From Deinococcales bacterium (GTDB lineage Bacteria > Deinococcota > Deinococci > Deinococcales > JAAFIG01): 64,000 nucleotides of DNA. Made by a program: the position numbers and the translations under genes. Location: assembly GCA_025359505.1 (NCBI GenBank), contig JANYHH010000126.1, positions 18,641 to 82,640 of the forward strand, in the 5' to 3' direction. The number at the start of each line of letters is the position of its first letter. Position 1 is the stretch's first letter. Of this stretch, positions 1 through 64,000 are shown one piece after another. The notes below the pieces were generated by a model. That model ran no database searches. It was given only the letters and a program-made list of their open reading frames with translations, and was not told where the DNA came from.

Positions 1-180
1 CATTGCGCGTGCTCGAGTTCATGCGCGGTAGCTTAGCAACGCAGCGTGAGGAAAAATCCACATCGCAGCGGTGAGGCTGCCTCACCCACGCCACCTCGAG
101 CTGGATGCGTTTTGTATCCTCGAGCTTCCAATGCACTACGCTCTCGAGCCGAGCCGAACCGCGCTGCGAACCCTCGAAGC

Positions 181-984
181 CTAACTGACGCCGAAATACT
201 TGAAGATTTGCTTGTAAACCTCCAAAGGCAATGAGCCGCTGAACAGGTAGCCATTGATGATGAAGCTCGGCGTGCCGTTGACGCCGAAGGCCGTCGCGGC
301 GGCGATGTCGGCTTGCACGTCTTTGCTGTGGCGCTGCTGGATCAGACACGTTTGCACCAGTTCAGGGTTCGCACCGACCTGTGCCGACAGGCTCGAGAGC
401 GTGGTGCTCAACGTCGCGCCCGGTGCGATGCTCGCCCAGCGCTCGACTTGCGCGAACATCAGATCGTGGAATTCCCAGAATTTATTTTGCTCCGCCACAC
501 AAGCCGTGGCGTTCGAGACGGTCACGCTTTGCTCGCCGCCAACACTGACCGTATCGCGGTACGCGTAACGGATTTTGCCGCTGTCCACGAACTCGGTTTT
601 CAACAGCGGGAAGGTTTCAAGCGAATACTGACGGCAGTAACGGCAGCGGTAATCGCCGAACTCGACCATCGTGACTTTCGCTCCCGCTCCACCCAGCACG
701 TGCCGCGCCCCGTTCAGGCCGTCGCCCTCGACGGGTGTACCAATGACTTGGGCGTTCTGACCGTTCGACACGAAGTTGAAAGCGATGGGCTTTCGCGCTT
801 GCGCTGGTTTCGGGGCGCTGTTCATGCCGATACCGATTCCGGCAATCAAGCCAATGAACGCACCGAGCACGCCAGCCGCGAACGGATTGAAGCGCGGCGC
901 TCGAGCTTGGGCAACTCGAGGTTCTGGCGCTGGGTCAACGACGGCGGCGGGCTCGAGGGATGCTGGTGGCGTGGGTTCGGACAT
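181..984 (-). CDS. DsbA-family thiol:disulfide oxidoreductase, membrane-anchored
   Basis: 267-aa ORF. Pro/Ala-rich N-tail plus one TM helix (GVLGAFIGLIAGIGIG). Thioredoxin-fold CxxC (YRCRYCRQY) and DsbA-type C-terminus (FGVNGTPSFIING). Confidence 0.85.
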   Translation of the reverse strand: MSEPTPPASLEPAAVVDPAPEPRVAQARAPRFNPFAAGVLGAFIGLIAGIGIGMNSAPKPAQARKPIAFNFVSNGQNAQVIGTPVEGDGLNGARHVLGGAGAKVTMVEFGDYRCRYCRQYSLETFPLLKTEFVDSGKIRYAYRDTVSVGGEQSVTVSNATACVAEQNKFWEFHDLMFAQVERWASIAPGATLSTTLSSLSAQVGANPELVQTCLIQQRHSKDVQADIAAATAFGVNGTPSFIINGYLFSGSLPLEVYKQIFKYFGVS

Positions 985-1011
985 GCCTTGAGGCTACACC
1001 AGTCTGACCGT

Positions 1012-2103
1012 TCAGGGCGTGCGAGCGAGGACTTGATTGTTGCTGGCGTCGACGGCGACCACGCGCTCGATTCGTCCAGCTTCGCTGACCACTACGCTGA
1101 CATACGGACTGGTCAGCGCTTGCGACGTGACCGCGCCCGCTGCGGGTTCGCGCACCGTCAAGCGCAAAGAAAGCGTCGTCCCCTCGAGAATCGCGCCTGC
1201 CACAGTCACGCCGTAGCCGCCGGTGCTTTTGCGCCCCTGAAAGAACGTCACGACCCGTGCTGTGGTGAAATCGACGTTTGGCGCGGGTGGCTGCGGAATC
1301 TGATTGCCGTTCAGCAACGCCCACGTCTGCGCGAAGCTCGAGGGATCGCTGTCTAAGCGCACGGCAGGAGCCGCGTTGTCATACGTGCTGTTGCCGCCCG
1401 CGCTGAGCGGCGTCAGGCGCAACTGTGGCGCGGGGGCGGCGAAACCGCCGAACAGATCGGTTGGCACGCCGACTTGCACGTACAGCGCGGTGATGTTGTT
1501 GCGATCCGGGCGCGGGTTCAATCCCAGCGGCGTGTCGGCGTGATTGGCGTTGTTGATGAGCGCCAGTGCCAACGGCTGGCGCTTGTAGGAAGCCGTTAAA
1601 TACGCACTGATCGCGTCTGCTTCGGCATCGGTCAGCAAACCCACGCCGCGCAAGCCATTGCGTTCACGCACGGGTAAGCGCAGTTTGACGTTCGCCTCCA
1701 AGGGCGCAGAACCGCCGACATCAAACCATCTCAAACCGTCAAAGTAATACACCCGCTCGAGCGCCGCTCTGGTCAACACGCTCAGTTCGCTCGAGACGGG
1801 GATCGTGGCGACGGCGATCACCTCGCGGTAACTGGCGGTGTTGGTCTGCAAGGTCGGTTTGCCGTTGACTGTCAAGGCTCCGGGTACAGCCAGCGGCCCG
1901 ATGGGTTGCTCGCCAGACAGTGTGATGTTTAACGGCCCGAGCGTCAAGGCTTTGGTCTGGCTTGAATCTAGCTTGCCGTAGAAAAACGTGTGACGCTCTT
2001 TGATGCCGTACAGCACGACATCGTTGGCGGTGTAGGCGCTAGGCTGGAAGTTGCAGGCGCTTAGCAGTATTGCGCCGAGCAGCGGGAGCAGGAGGTGTTT
2101 CAT
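1012..2103 (-). CDS. Putative lipoprotein, possible PrcB_C-like C-terminal domain
   Basis: ORF trimmed to the internal ATG at 2103, which gives lipoprotein signal MKHLLLPLLGAILLSAC. The C-terminal segment FFQGRKSTGGYGVTV resembles the PrcB C-terminal domain pattern (weak, from memory). Confidence 0.65.
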   Translation of the reverse strand: MKHLLLPLLGAILLSACNFQPSAYTANDVVLYGIKERHTFFYGKLDSSQTKALTLGPLNITLSGEQPIGPLAVPGALTVNGKPTLQTNTASYREVIAVATIPVSSELSVLTRAALERVYYFDGLRWFDVGGSAPLEANVKLRLPVRERNGLRGVGLLTDAEADAISAYLTASYKRQPLALALINNANHADTPLGLNPRPDRNNITALYVQVGVPTDLFGGFAAPAPQLRLTPLSAGGNSTYDNAAPAVRLDSDPSSFAQTWALLNGNQIPQPPAPNVDFTTARVVTFFQGRKSTGGYGVTVAGAILEGTTLSLRLTVREPAAGAVTSQALTSPYVSVVVSEAGRIERVVAVDASNNQVLARTP

Positions 2104-2190
2104 GATGTCAATAGTAGCCTTGGGGTGTGAAAGCAGATGAACTCGAGGCGAACGCGGTTTCATCGCCGCTGGCCGTGATCTACTGCTGAT

Positions 2191-62590: not shown

Positions 62591-62649
62591 GTCATCACCT
62601 AGAGCTGCCGCTGAGTCCTTCACCTCGAGCGCTTCGCAAGGTGTCTATT

Positions 62650-63537
62650 TCAGCGCCGAGGCTCGAGGGTGCGCTTGAAAAACGCGATGATCTGCTGCCA
62701 CGCTTTTTGACTCTCGCCCGCCTGCACGGAGTCAGCCCCGAAGCGCTTGGTCGCGGCTTCCCGCGCCGTGACGAAGCCGTGACCAGAATTCGGGTAAACC
62801 TCGAGCGTGAACGGTTTCTTGAAAGCGCTCAGTTCGGCTGCTAGCGCCCTCGCTTGCGCGGGTGGCACGGTCACGTCGCGCTCGCCCTGCTGAATCAGGA
62901 TCGGCATGGTGCTCGGGAGTTGCGGCACGACCCGCAAGCCGTGACGCTGCAAAAAGTTCTGTGGCTTATCCTGCGGGCCGTTCCCGTAAACGCGCCGCGT
63001 GATCGCGTCTGTCCCGAGCTGCTTGGACTGCACTAGATACGCGTACCACGCGTAGATGTCTGCCACGCCATACGCGAAGACCAGCGCCTTGATCTGCGAA
63101 GTGCGGGCTGTGGCCAGCAATCCGATCAGCGCTCCGTGGCTCGAGCCGAGCATGCCAATGCGACTCGCGTCCACAAACGGTTGCTTTGAAAACCACCGCA
63201 TCCCGTTGAGCACGTCAATCACCTCGCCCGATGCGATTTCGATTTGCCCATCCGAGCCGCCCTCGCCCCGGTAAGCGCTGGCGAAGACCGCGTAGCCCGC
63301 CCGCGCCACATCCCGTGCGCGTTGCTTCGTGGCCCACGTTACGCCGTCCGTGCCGCCGTGGTTGAGGATCACCGCTGGCAAGCGCCCCGATACGTCCGGG
63401 CGCACGGTGAAAGCGTTGATTCGCAGCGCTCCGCTCATGTATGTGATGCTCGCCTCGAGCAGCTTTGGCTGTGACGCCACCTGCGACAATGCGAAGCTCG
63501 AGGTGAGCAGTAACGTGAGAGCGACGAGAATTCGCAC
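62650..63537 (-). CDS. Secreted alpha/beta hydrolase (dienelactone hydrolase / S9 peptidase-like)
   Basis: 295 aa. Signal peptide MRILVALTLLLTSSFALSQ and nucleophile elbow LGSSHGA. Confidence 0.8.
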   Translation of the reverse strand: MRILVALTLLLTSSFALSQVASQPKLLEASITYMSGALRINAFTVRPDVSGRLPAVILNHGGTDGVTWATKQRARDVARAGYAVFASAYRGEGGSDGQIEIASGEVIDVLNGMRWFSKQPFVDASRIGMLGSSHGALIGLLATARTSQIKALVFAYGVADIYAWYAYLVQSKQLGTDAITRRVYGNGPQDKPQNFLQRHGLRVVPQLPSTMPILIQQGERDVTVPPAQARALAAELSAFKKPFTLEVYPNSGHGFVTAREAATKRFGADSVQAGESQKAWQQIIAFFKRTLEPRR

Positions 63538-63593
63538 AGCTTATACCGTACCAAACAACCGCGTTTAAGACCGCGCCGCGTACAGTAAAGCTC

Positions 63594-63989
63594 ATGGCAG
63601 GTTTTGCGTCGGTACTCGAGGGGATTGTTCGTTCCATCGCCGTGTACGTCGCGGCGTTCACCGAAGGCGCGGCGGCGCTCGTCGTGATCGCAGCCGTGCT
63701 CGAGGCGCTGGTCGCCGCAGCGCGTGCGCTGATCGGCGTTGACCGCGAGGTCAGAAAGGAAGCGATTCGCCTGCGCTTGGGACGCTGGCTTTCGGTCGTC
63801 CTCGAGTTTCTGCTAGCGGCTGATATCTTGAGAACCGCGATCGCGCCGAGTTGGGACGATATTGGCAAGTTAGCGGCGATTGCCGGGATTCGCACGGCGC
63901 TCAATTACTTCCTGCAACGCGAGGTGCGCGAAGCGAGTCAATCGGTGAATCCGCCCCTAGCGGCGTTGCTCGAGGTTGGCAGCAAGTGA
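63594..63989 (+). CDS. DUF1622 membrane protein
   Basis: 131 aa. DUF1622 pattern (LGRWLSVVLEFLLAADILRTA...IAGIRTALNYFL). Confidence 0.75.
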   Translation: MAGFASVLEGIVRSIAVYVAAFTEGAAALVVIAAVLEALVAAARALIGVDREVRKEAIRLRLGRWLSVVLEFLLAADILRTAIAPSWDDIGKLAAIAGIRTALNYFLQREVREASQSVNPPLAALLEVGSK

Positions 63990-64000
63990 TAAATGCGATT

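Follow-up and report, generated by a model that had tools for sequence, protein, structure and literature searches.

CTCGAG sites in the window

The window analysed here is the whole stretch of 64,000 bases (GC 60.6%) from an uncultured lineage of Deinococcales. By exact machine count it carries 413 copies of the palindromic hexamer CTCGAG. The initial annotation had put the number at about 410, and the first eight positions that it gave (12, 95, 119, 143, 392, 900, 915 and 952) are exact. The loci considered below are:

8515..11019, no strand: sparsest stretch, with two gaps of ~1.1 kb; sugar ABC-transporter permease and binding-protein genes
13904..16285, + strand: coxL-type molybdopterin dehydrogenase large subunit gene; 6 sites, 2.5/kb
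19294..20307, + strand: coxD; 9 sites (4 Leu-Glu, 4 xxC.TCG.AGx, 1 xCT.CGA.Gxx)
25318..25374, no strand: intergenic 24-bp tandem repeat CTCGAGCTGAGATGCGCTGCGACC, 2.4 copies, 3 sites
33364..33442, no strand: densest non-coding cluster, 6 sites, directly after the stop codon of the gene at 32125-33354
33515 and 33558: two more sites beyond that cluster
43261..43320, no strand: intergenic cluster of 4 sites between two ABC-transporter genes
52457..54295, + strand: RsmB/F-type rRNA methyltransferase gene; 20 sites, 10.9/kb
56337..56415, no strand: intergenic array of 4 sites at 24-bp spacing, in part a 24-bp tandem repeat

The coxL-type gene shows 90-95% amino-acid identity within the clade and served as the anchor for finding orthologous loci. 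For coxD, the name comes from the earlier reading and the position in the operon, with the ORF called here; the four Leu-Glu and four Ser-phase sites reported previously are present, plus one Arg-phase site. No other gene in the window has as many sites as the RsmB/F-type gene, whose density is among the highest. Two constrained genes had been singled out as sparse, and this holds for the PBP1A gene (5 sites), but the aminotransferase ORF, as delimited here, has three rather than one, with two of the three lying right at the ends of the ORF.

Copy number and spacing

Base composition predicts 20.9 copies, close to the roughly 20 estimated earlier, giving an observed/expected (O/E) ratio of ~20. 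Markov models predict 25.2 (order 1) or 33.4 (order 2), and when the motif is masked from the order-2 model the excess is 38-fold on both strands (826 vs 21.6 expected), equivalent to ~11 expected against 413 in single counts. A maximal-order model gives CTCGAG a z of 16.3, the top value among the 4096 hexamers, and it ranks first whichever model is used. The runners-up by frequency, GCTCGA and TCGAGC, are one-base shifts of it, and no other GC-rich hexamer among the 4096 is comparably enriched in the window. For most of the remaining 6-bp palindromes, strong avoidance is the rule.

The one-mismatch relatives (1-54 copies each) had been called ordinary, as is true of most (0.9-1.1x expectation under the masked model), but not of CCCGAG/CTCGGG (2.3x) or CTGGAG/CTCCAG (0.44x). 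The one-off variants show no depletion, and so leave no "sink" signature to be seen. CTCGAG accounts for 67% of the TCGA tetramers in the window; outside it TCGA is at expectation (203 observed vs ~207 from composition; 0.9-1.1x under the masked model).

Spacing is near-exponential (mean 155 bp, CV 1.09, largest gap 1,140 bp), with 14-37 sites per 4 kb spread roughly evenly along the window, and no site-free island longer than 1.14 kb is found in ~330 kb of clade DNA. Flanking bases show weak preferences, for G at -1 (45%) and for C at +1 (44%). A search for a repeat unit longer than the hexamer returned chance families seeded on the hexamer itself. Within the window the sites show no preference for promoters or terminators, except for a mild excess at gene 3' ends. 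The hyper-abundance of CTCGAG is real and is not a product of codon usage, a longer repeat or assembly.

Genes, spacers and protein sequence

CTCGAG is densest in spacers, as first noted: 12.1/kb in non-coding DNA (122 sites in 10.1 kb) vs 5.4/kb in genes. On the first gene set, the non-coding count was 131 vs 5.9 expected. In genes, 293 copies compare with 49±6 after a synonymous-codon shuffle, which leaves the protein sequence and codon usage of every gene unchanged, and whole-codon shuffling leaves 20±4 vs 281-293 observed. All three phases are used, as had been claimed, with 169 sites as CTC.GAG, 74 as xxC.TCG.AGx and 47 as xCT.CGA.Gxx. The Leu-Glu dipeptide is found 251 times vs 109 expected (2.3x) while the reverse Glu-Leu is at 1.04x; CTCGAG encodes 169 of the 251 Leu-Glu pairs, although CTC makes up only 23% of Leu codons. 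CTCGAG has thus doubled Leu-Glu, and protein sequences have been pulled towards this dipeptide.

Sites are densest where constraint is lowest. In a comparison of six cox-region genes, the conserved ones (83-94% amino-acid identity) carry 2-3.4 sites/kb and the variable ones (53-72%) carry 7.4-10.8. At CTCGAG sites shared by the clade, outgroups have Leu-Glu in 31% of cases vs a baseline dipeptide identity of 48%, frequently with [IVMF]E or L-x instead. The sites have arisen largely by point substitution where the protein tolerates change, from Val/Ile-Glu or Leu-X to Leu-Glu and from Ser AGC to TCG. Few come from short tandem duplication, which does add some, since the repeat at 25318..25374 carries three.

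Distribution across Deinococcota

The enrichment extends beyond the window to every related genome sampled. All of ~20 related Deinococcales loci carry CTCGAG at 4.5-8/kb over a GC range of 46-63%, and a separate region from another genome of the clade falls in the same density range. In clade genomes 65% of TCGA falls within CTCGAG, vs 4-8% in other phyla. After correction for codon usage, clade genomes exceed expectation 5-10x, a Trueperaceae genome 6.5x and Meiothermus 3.6-4.3x, and most controls stay at 0.8-1.3x; unrelated high-GC genomes show a moderate excess (1.1-2.3x). Meiothermus-group DNA has a 2-8-fold excess, and an A. silvanus plasmid merely 1.9x. In sister loci from Deinococcus sp. 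there are no sites, vs ~8-13 expected. The excess spans the clade, is less pronounced in Meiothermus and in a Trueperaceae genome, and is reversed in Deinococcus. CTCGAG hyper-abundance is a genome-wide feature at the DNA level, and not the property of a gene, a mobile element or codon choice.

Retention at orthologous positions

At orthologous positions, pooled over 11 genome pairs that are phylogenetically non-independent, CTCGAG is retained at 0.66-0.81 vs 0.29-0.37 for other hexamers. This two- to threefold difference includes non-coding DNA and synonymous positions. Per-base identity is 0.88-0.98 within CTCGAG vs ~0.65-0.72 at flanking third-codon or non-coding positions, leaving a six-base identity footprint in coding and non-coding DNA alike. 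Loss of established sites is 3-4 times slower than that of adjacent neutral bases, non-coding sites included. Together with the shuffle null and the relation of density to conservation, this retention supports the initial proposal of a process that generates or retains the motif at the DNA level, opposed by purifying selection.

Methyltransferases specific for CTCGAG

A search for methyltransferase and Vsr genes, recommended in the initial annotation, came back empty: genes for DNA methyltransferases, restriction enzymes and Vsr-like proteins are all absent from the 64-kb window and ~20 related loci, as are homologues of M.PaeR7I and R.PaeR7I. In Thermaceae, m6A Type II methyltransferases of cTcgAg specificity are recorded for Marinithermus hydrothermalis, Meiothermus chliarophilus and M. 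ruber, but not M. silvanus (PMC4752239, supplementary table). These orphan enzymes, M.Mhy14884I, M.Mch9957IV and M.Mru1279II, are listed with no restriction enzyme, and 94-99.5% of sites are modified (Blow et al. 2016, PMC4752239). They act on the same hexamer, in the same phylum as the window lineage, and are conserved across genera. In Nocardia, orphan CTCGAG methyltransferases are tied to site clusters at the replication origin; that study reports methylation and these origin-proximal clusters, not genome-wide hyper-abundance (Blow et al. 2016, PMC4752239). In the window lineage, an orphan m6A methyltransferase of this kind probably acts on CTCGAG; this extrapolates from another family of Deinococcota, as all matches listed by the protein searches came from other taxa.

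Comparison with known motifs

HIP1 of cyanobacteria (Robinson 1995) is the nearest analogue proposed at the outset, and one that the data support. To count as a highly iterated palindrome here, a short palindrome needed an O/E of at least ~15 and had to occur far more often than 0.2/kb. CTCGAG stands at 6.5/kb, with O/E of 20 by composition and 38 under the masked order-2 model; it lies in all frames and in non-coding DNA, beyond codon usage, at conserved sites and across a whole clade. Like CTCGAG, HIP1 is a short, GC-rich palindrome, more than 15-fold enriched in coding (all frames) and non-coding DNA, that distorts peptide content, is clade-wide with exceptions and replacements, and has a known methyltransferase target as its core. 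Both host phyla are naturally transformable and polyploid. HIP1 sites, like those of CTCGAG, are conserved at orthologous positions (PMC5861425). HIP1 is GCGATCGC, found in cyanobacteria together with alternative highly iterated palindromes (Elhai 2015, PMC4390886; Xu et al. 2018, PMC5861425).

CTCGAG differs in being a 6-mer of Deinococcota rather than an 8-mer of cyanobacteria, and is several times denser (6.5/kb vs 0.2-2.7/kb). Its commonest one-off variant is at positions 2/5 and not at the ends, and methylation in its Thermaceae relatives is m6A by a single enzyme, vs m5C/m4C plus Dam-type for HIP1. HIP1 proper can be rejected, as the motif is not GCGATCGC (core CGATCG/GATC), the host belongs to Deinococcales, and CGATCG is avoided in the window (14 vs 82 expected). 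HIP1-type periodicity is on a scale of 10-90 kb; the short window of 64 kb, with its 14-37 sites per 4 kb, has no evident pattern. No published description of CTCGAG hyper-abundance was found in the literature. CTCGAG represents a second, independent case of a highly iterated palindrome, an unexplained phenomenon described until now in cyanobacteria.

The uptake sequences DUS (Neisseria) and USS (Pasteurellaceae) are also hyper-abundant, dispersed through genes and spacers at a tolerated cost to proteins, and carried by competent hosts; a transformation-linked molecular drive could explain them as well as CTCGAG. However, they are 9-12-bp non-palindromic motifs at ~1/kb that often form inverted-pair terminators, and this class was rejected for CTCGAG, a 6-bp palindrome at 6.5/kb with weakly biased flanks and no terminator use. 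The terminator pairing suggested initially was not borne out: the window has 18 terminator-like hairpins vs 21.9 in shuffles, and one of the 18, in the cluster at 43261..43320, is formed by a CTCGAG pair. We know of no sequence-specific DNA uptake in Deinococcota.

XhoI/PaeR7I restriction-modification shares the recognition sequence and m6A at the adenine. A host with an active restriction enzyme avoids the site which that enzyme cuts; sister Deinococcus, with no sites, resembles such a host, and the window lineage does the opposite. A restriction-modification target was rejected, the site being 20-38 times over-represented and no enzyme homologue being present in the window or related loci. 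REP/MITE-type repeats (units of 20 bp or more) were rejected with only chance families found and flanks near background, as were strand-biased motifs such as Chi and AIMS/KOPS, strand bias being impossible for a self-reverse-complementary hexamer.

Origin and maintenance of CTCGAG

CTCGAG is best read as a HIP-like iterated palindrome that a fixation bias towards the exact hexamer would maintain, by an inferred mechanism. An orphan N6-adenine methyltransferase of XhoI/PaeR7I specificity would mark the site, on the model of SMRT data from Marinithermus and two Meiothermus, and the bias for the exact methylated hexamer would have a scaled strength of roughly 2.5-3.6. Most likely, DNA with methylated CTCGAG would be favoured when it is taken up or undergoes homologous recombination, whether among cells or among the copies of the genome, and alleles bearing the site would therefore spread until stopped by protein constraint. 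The same mode is now proposed for HIP1 and uptake sequences, and HIP1 boosts natural transformation only if methylated. Deinococcota are naturally transformable and polyploid. Counting against this mode, Thermus is not known to prefer any sequence in DNA uptake, CTCGAG is not in excess on T. thermophilus plasmid pTT27, and the one-off variants are undepleted. Taken whole, from palindrome and orphan methyltransferase to fixation bias through uptake or recombination, this reading is put forward tentatively, with a probability a little short of even. Sequence data cannot tell a drive through transformation or recombination from biased repair or selection for a chromosomal function.

Under neutral repair drive, a mismatch-repair or VSP-like activity, or biased gene conversion among many genome copies, would correct heteroduplexes to CTCGAG, which need have no cellular function. 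This follows the VSP idea of Bhagwat and McClelland and Elhai's methylation-dependent repair model for HIP sequences (PMC4390886), and is rather unlikely. Sites do pile up wherever constraint permits, at the expense of protein sequence; retention is equally strong at non-coding and synonymous positions; spacing is random, without positional logic; and by our own estimate a single bias parameter can fit both enrichment and retention. However, no Vsr-like or other candidate repair gene is present in the window or related loci, an m6A site leaves no deamination product for repair, and the one-off variants are undepleted, with no favoured single base change as T:G-specific repair predicts. For HIP1, Xu et al. 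reasoned from the conservation of sites against replenishment through biased repair (PMC5861425). Their argument leaves room for a bias that also protects existing sites. It is similarly doubtful that a host factor binds or reads CTCGAG, methylated or not, making each site weakly advantageous, with nucleoid organisation, marking of self DNA, strand discrimination in replication or mismatch repair, and nuclease protection as candidate functions. Extrapolated from the density in the window, a ~5-Mb genome (the size of OZ252252.1) would have ~30,000 sites, each of which selection would have to see, and the irregular spacing and the near-absence of positional preference, a mild 3'-end excess apart, do not suit a functional site. 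To our knowledge, the regulatory orphan-methyltransferase motifs GATC and GANTC have no enrichment of this kind. In favour of a chromosomal function, sites are kept at orthologous positions even in non-coding DNA, the motif persists across a drift in GC from 46 to 63%, other palindromes are almost completely avoided in the genome, and CTCGAG orphan methyltransferases are conserved in Thermaceae and tied to origin clusters in Nocardia. Similar conservation of HIP1 was taken as selection linked to chromosome structure (Xu et al., PMC5861425).

Relative to the favoured fixation bias, two other explanations carry very little weight. That the excess stems from composition, codon usage or dipeptides, or from an unrecognised mobile element or longer repeat carrying CTCGAG, has a negligible probability: GC-rich Deinococcota often use the codons CTC and GAG, unrelated high-GC genomes have a moderate excess and a few sites lie within short tandem repeats, but this is refuted by the shuffles (49±6 and 20±4 vs 281-293), by non-coding DNA being the densest compartment, by relatives at 46% GC that are equally dense, by the repeat search and by the weak preferences of the flanks. 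Almost as improbable is a residue of restriction, in which TaqI-type (TCGA) or other enzymes clear TCGA except where a methylase protects CTCGAG, so that the sites survive rather than being gained. The share of TCGA within CTCGAG in the window and the avoidance of many palindromes are in its favour, as is plasmid pTT27 of T. thermophilus HB8, where 45 of 49 TCGA lie inside CTCGAG and TCGA is otherwise nearly absent; TaqI-like methylases are common in Thermus. However, TCGA outside CTCGAG is at expectation, and the reading is already contradicted by the absolute excess, as survival alone cannot yield 20-38 times the expected number. Thermus itself differs: on pTT27, CTCGAG is at 0.5x the codon-usage null, with no positive excess.

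Abundance and arrangement of CTCGAG

By exact count, CTCGAG occurs 413 times in the window's 64,000 bases (GC 60.6%), where 20.9 copies are expected from base composition, 25.2 from a first-order and 33.4 from a second-order Markov model. As the motif itself inflates the counts of CTC, TCG, CGA and GAG, the order-2 model was rebuilt with every CTCGAG masked; under this null the two strands together should carry 21.6 copies, but they carry 826, which is 38 times as many. In the maximal-order Markov analysis that the initial annotation had called for, CTCGAG ranks first among all 4096 hexamers (z-score 16.3); the next in abundance are its own one-base shifts, and no other hexamer is comparable. 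The hyper-abundance that the annotation had claimed is thus borne out, the first eight positions it gave are all exact, and the two clusters it cited are present (6 copies at 33364-33442 and 4 at 43261-43320).

The one-mismatch variants had been described as ordinary. This holds for most of them, which lie at 0.9-1.1x expectation under the masked null, but not for CTGGAG/CTCCAG (0.44x, in the window only) or for CCCGAG/CTCGGG (2.3x in the window, 2.3-2.8x in window and clade, 0.93x in controls). The latter pair is a change at T2/A5 of CTCGAG, and it is the adenine at A5 that Thermaceae methylate. Taken together, CCCGAG/CTCGGG and CTCGAG fit an AvaI-type pattern, CYCGRG; CCCGGG is absent. A "sink" around the motif, seen as a 2-3x depletion of NTCGAG and CTCGAN in the first Markov table, is withdrawn: the variants are at 0.9-1.1x once CTCGAG is masked, and the apparent depletion was an artefact of the inflated trinucleotide counts.

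The flanks are weakly biased, with G before 45% of the copies and C after 44%. A larger repeat or mobile element carrying the hexamer was rejected, as the repeat search revealed no family beyond the hexamer itself; a few intergenic sites lie within short tandem duplications of 15-24 bp. Regular spacing or phasing is ruled out, the distances being near exponential (mean 155 bp, CV 1.09) with only the 3-base period of coding DNA, plus small peaks at 21 and 24 bp that could stem from Leu-Glu dipeptides repeated at intervals of seven or eight residues in genes. Site density is somewhat higher directly downstream of stop codons (17/kb) than ahead of starts (12/kb). Terminator function was also rejected: hairpins are no commoner than in shuffles, and a CTCGAG pair is found in one of 18 terminator-like hairpins.

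Adjacent sites 6 bp apart are absent among about 1,600 gaps in the window and clade loci. Two copies placed end to end would form GAGCTC, one of the palindromes avoided in the genome. Sites 7 bp apart (CTCGAGnCTCGAG) occur 13 times in the same material. The AbsI site CCTCGAGG, an 8-bp palindrome, is found 0 times in the window against 27 expected from flank frequencies, and is also rare in the clade (e.g. 1/7.8, 1/6.5 and 0/6.1 observed/expected), though not in Meiothermus (8/10.7). CCTCGAG and CTCGAGG, both 7-mers, occur commonly in the window and clade loci. One repeat array carries the motif in its first units and CTCCGG at the same place in later ones:

9859-9976: 16-bp tandem repeat TGGTGCTCCGGTTACT, 7.4 copies, running into the called 5' end of the gene on the next line
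9966-11216, minus strand: sugar-binding-protein gene

CTCGAG in genes and proteins

With 54 ORFs called by length and GC3 pattern as the gene set, 290 sites fall in genes (5.4/kb) and 122 in non-coding DNA (12.1/kb). The genic sites are divided between the phases CTC.GAG (169), xxC.TCG.AGx (74) and xCT.CGA.Gxx (47), in agreement with the earlier claim that the motif occupies all three phases and is densest outside genes. Codon usage is ruled out as the cause, as a synonymous-codon shuffle within genes, a null that preserves each protein and the codon usage that CTCGAG has itself inflated, gives 49±6 sites against 293 observed. A whole-codon shuffle gives 20±4.

No dipeptide is more over-represented than Leu-Glu, with 251 copies where 109 are expected (Glu-Leu has 113), and 169 of the 251 are encoded by CTCGAG, although CTC makes up only 23% of Leu codons. 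The hexamer is likewise used in about 44% of compatible X-Ser-Ser/Arg triplets and in 31% of compatible [SPTA]-Arg-[VADEG] triplets, though rare codons are needed in both.

Gain, loss and retention of sites

Codon alignments of cox-region genes were made from 14 clade genomes and six outgroups. The sites form a mosaic, some being present in all clade members and many in one to three genomes only, and genomes without a given site carry synonymous or near-synonymous alternatives. Some gains take several changes, such as a coxL Ser codon that is AGC in Deinococcus and TCG in the whole clade. Where three or more clade genomes share an in-frame site, Leu-Glu is found in 31% of outgroup cases, below the baseline dipeptide identity of 48%, and Val/Ile/Met/Phe-Glu or Leu-X often stands in its place. 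Therefore, the DNA-level pull has changed proteins.

Once present, sites are retained well. Between two clade genomes of 87% nucleotide identity (L002 and L005), retention is 0.85-0.92 for CTCGAG and 0.47 for any hexamer. Pooled over 11 genome pairs, which are not independent phylogenetically, CTCGAG is retained at 0.755 outside genes and, phase by phase, at 0.81, 0.66 and 0.78 within them; the values for other hexamers are 0.29 (non-coding) and 0.37 (coding). Per-base identity is 0.88-0.98 exactly over the six bases, and drops to about 0.65-0.70 at third-codon positions beside the site and to about 0.72 in the non-coding sequence around it. After multiple-hit correction, the substitution rate of CTCGAG is roughly 3-4-fold lower. 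In a rough calculation with a single fixation-bias parameter S, where the gain/loss ratio equals e^S, the 12- to 38-fold enrichment would correspond to an S of about 2.5-3.6, which would predict 4.5- to 10-fold fewer losses, the same order as observed. CTTGAG is the recurrent loss state when gains and losses are polarised on genome triplets, where events are too few and branches too long for a mutational spectrum.

CTCGAG density drops as protein constraint rises: the three most conserved cox-region genes (83-94% amino-acid identity to L002) have 2.0-3.4 sites/kb and the three least conserved (53-72%) have 7.4-10.8. This drop, the non-coding density and the retention of sites support the view of the initial annotation that a DNA-level process favouring the exact hexamer works against protein constraint.

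Distribution in Deinococcota and other groups

A search of the GTDB species representatives with the coxL-type gene at 13904-16285 as query retrieved 80 loci. Those closest to it belong to MAGs of uncultured "Deinococcales bacterium" (amino-acid identity 90-95%), including one complete 5.09-Mb chromosome (OZ252252.1), and several bear glacier- or stream-type isolate names. All of these closest loci carry 4.5-8 CTCGAG/kb (O/E 13-32) at GC contents of 46-63%, and a further clade genome (L203), sampled in another region (PBP1A), has 5.2/kb. In the window and clade loci, CTCGAG contains about 65% of the TCGA tetramers; in other phyla its share is 4-8%. The longest CTCGAG-free stretch in about 330 kb of clade DNA is 1.14 kb. 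A 9.4-kb Logan contig (L267, SRR20627842), the sole indexed contig encoding the window's first protein exactly, reaches about 4.6 kb past the window's left end and has 60 CTCGAG (6.4/kb). As the GTDB species representatives come no nearer than 90-95% identity on CoxL, the window's genome does not seem to be among them.

Table. CTCGAG relative to the codon null (synonymous-codon shuffle within each gene)
Uncultured Deinococcales clade: 5-10x
Trueperaceae MAG: 6.5x
Meiothermus-group MAGs: 3.6-4.3x
Allomeiothermus silvanus plasmid: 1.9x
Most unrelated controls: 0.8-1.3x
T. thermophilus HB8 pTT27: 0.5x
D. radiodurans MP1: 0.36x
Two Deinococcus sp. MAG loci, 37 kb: zero CTCGAG

Thus, CTCGAG spans complete avoidance to extreme enrichment within one phylum. 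A positive force across the whole phylum is ruled out, since CTCGAG falls short of codon-usage expectation in T. thermophilus pTT27 and D. radiodurans MP1. The Deinococcus sp. MAGs (L013 1-14653 and L014 1-22340), which are the closest matches outside the clade, have no CTCGAG where about 8-13 are expected, as would be expected for an active XhoI-type restriction system; their Leu-Glu is written CTGGAG or CTGGAA. In T. thermophilus HB8 pTT27 (L269 1-50000) there are 49 TCGA in 50 kb, 45 of them inside CTCGAG, a pattern consistent with TaqI/TthHB8I-type avoidance of TCGA in which CTCGAG is the sole tolerated context.

Some IMG/VR viral contigs (L148, L141, L149, L106 and L162) have 5-6 CTCGAG/kb at 64-72% GC, with up to about 60% of TCGA inside CTCGAG in L148, L141 and L106. 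Phages or proviruses of CTCGAG-rich hosts may share the signature.

Methylation of CTCGAG in relatives and possibly in the clade

Type II m6A methyltransferases for cTcgAg, with no restriction partner listed, are found in three of four Thermaceae examined by SMRT: Marinithermus hydrothermalis (Marky_0034, 94.6% of cTcgAg modified), Meiothermus chliarophilus (MeichDRAFT_0814, 94.1%) and M. ruber (Mrub_2385, 99.5%), with none in M. silvanus (Blow et al., PMC4752239). In Nocardia, an orphan CTCGAG methylase is known and the motif clusters at the replication origin (Blow et al., PMC4752239). The predicted CTCGAG methylase of M. extorquens AM1 is entered as not detected in the same study (PMC4752239). 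The REBASE-predicted CTCGAG-specific enzyme of this strain is taken as the first of two neighbouring ORFs:

L201 (M. extorquens AM1 megaplasmid) 10533-12131, minus strand: Eco57I-family methylase ORF
L201 9974-10495, plus strand: uncharacterised 173-aa ORF beside it; region without annotation in PLSDB

Among the window's 57 largest ORFs, padloc and Pfam identified neither a DNA methyltransferase nor a restriction enzyme nor a Vsr-like protein. Relatives of M.TaqI (query verified against PDB 1AQJ), M.PaeR7I, R.PaeR7I, 150 Eco57I-family representatives and the predicted M. extorquens methylase were not found by tblastn in the window or in any of the related loci compared. Database searches with M.TaqI, the M. 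extorquens ORF and M.PaeR7I (L202) gave no homologue from the lineage among the matches listed, which are Thermus TCGA enzymes, proteobacterial homologues or identical plasmid copies. By analogy with Thermaceae, CTCGAG may be methylated in the window's clade.

Comparison with HIP1 and possible explanations

HIP1, the highly iterated palindrome found in the genomes of cyanobacteria, has gone unexplained for thirty years, and work on it has treated it as a one-phylum phenomenon. It is enriched 15- to 300-fold (0.2-2.7/kb), is conserved within and between ORFs, and holds the targets of orphan methylases (PMC4390886, PMC5861425). It has been hypothesised to be an uptake recognition sequence, and in recent work HIP1 increased natural transformation by as much as 100-fold, an effect seen only with the methylated form. 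The HIP-class features open to comparison in sequence are all seen in CTCGAG, which is enriched, present in all frames and in non-coding DNA, conserved and clade-wide; on these points, HIP1 is upheld as the closest analogue, as the initial annotation had proposed. However, CTCGAG differs from HIP1 in phylum, sequence, length, density and the methylation type of relatives (m6A). It differs from DUS/USS by structure, is not of the REP/MITE or strand-biased kind, and its behaviour is the reverse of that of a restriction target in the host that carries the system. A full-text search, with most subscription journals outside its scope, found no published description of CTCGAG hyper-abundance.

A fixation bias for the exact hexamer, opposed by protein constraint, is well supported. 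As for its specific mechanism, which is inferred, we favour a methylation-linked transformation or recombination drive because of the analogy with the recent HIP1 experiments. The sequence data fit equally with maintenance by biased repair or gene conversion, or by selection on chromosomal function. A broader form of the drive reading, in which methylated CTCGAG would be a "self-DNA" tag of a Deinococcota transformation/recombination system, spread by molecular drive, with HIP-type palindromes convergent in polyploid, naturally competent bacteria, is speculative and rather unlikely. If true, the tag would by now make up about 4% of all bases, roughly every second Leu-Glu of the proteome would have been rewritten by it, and, together with HIP1, iterated palindromes would be general rather than a peculiarity of cyanobacteria.

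Deinococcota offer an independent and denser case than HIP1, with another sequence, m6A in relatives and a gradient from avoidance to enrichment in one phylum, and thus the question of function, drive or repair bias becomes testable by comparison. The motif excess can be set against methyltransferase, restriction and competence genes over hundreds of Deinococcota genomes, and experiments are possible in transformable relatives that can be cultured, among them Meiothermus ruber, whose CTCGAG methylome is mapped. The motif also gives this uncultured Deinococcales lineage a strong signature for binning and taxonomy. The doubled Leu-Glu skews dipeptide statistics and will bias codon, protein-evolution and dN/dS analyses, and XhoI cloning or digestion of such DNA would give fragments of about 150 bp.

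Other palindromes and hairpins in the window

Most 6-bp palindromes are nearly absent from the window. The avoided set varies by clade subgroup (L004, L015, L203 and L002-L012 compared), and GCGCGC is at 103/141 in high-GC relatives. The pattern suggests heavy, lineage-specific restriction pressure.

Table. Avoided palindromes in the window (observed/expected)
GCGCGC 0/141
CGCGCG 3/140
CGATCG 14/82
TCGCGA 2/59
CAGCTG 0/51
GGCGCC 0/51
CCGCGG 0/45
TGCGCA 0/39
GAGCTC 0/38
CTGCAG 0/28

Rfam and tRNA scans of the 64-kb window found nothing, and neither a repeated 29-nt element nor the hairpin neighbouring it has an Rfam match. Both copies of the element have the same orientation to the adjoining ORF and lie near its 5' end as called.

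41200-41228 and 50182-50210: 29-nt element GGGCTTGCAGTGGCAAGCCCCTACGGAAT, 8-bp stem hairpin then CTACGG, copies 97% identical
50150-50191: second hairpin CCCCTACAAAAA...TTTTTGTAGGGG, beside the 50182-50210 copy of the element; part of it recurs at 59424-59465
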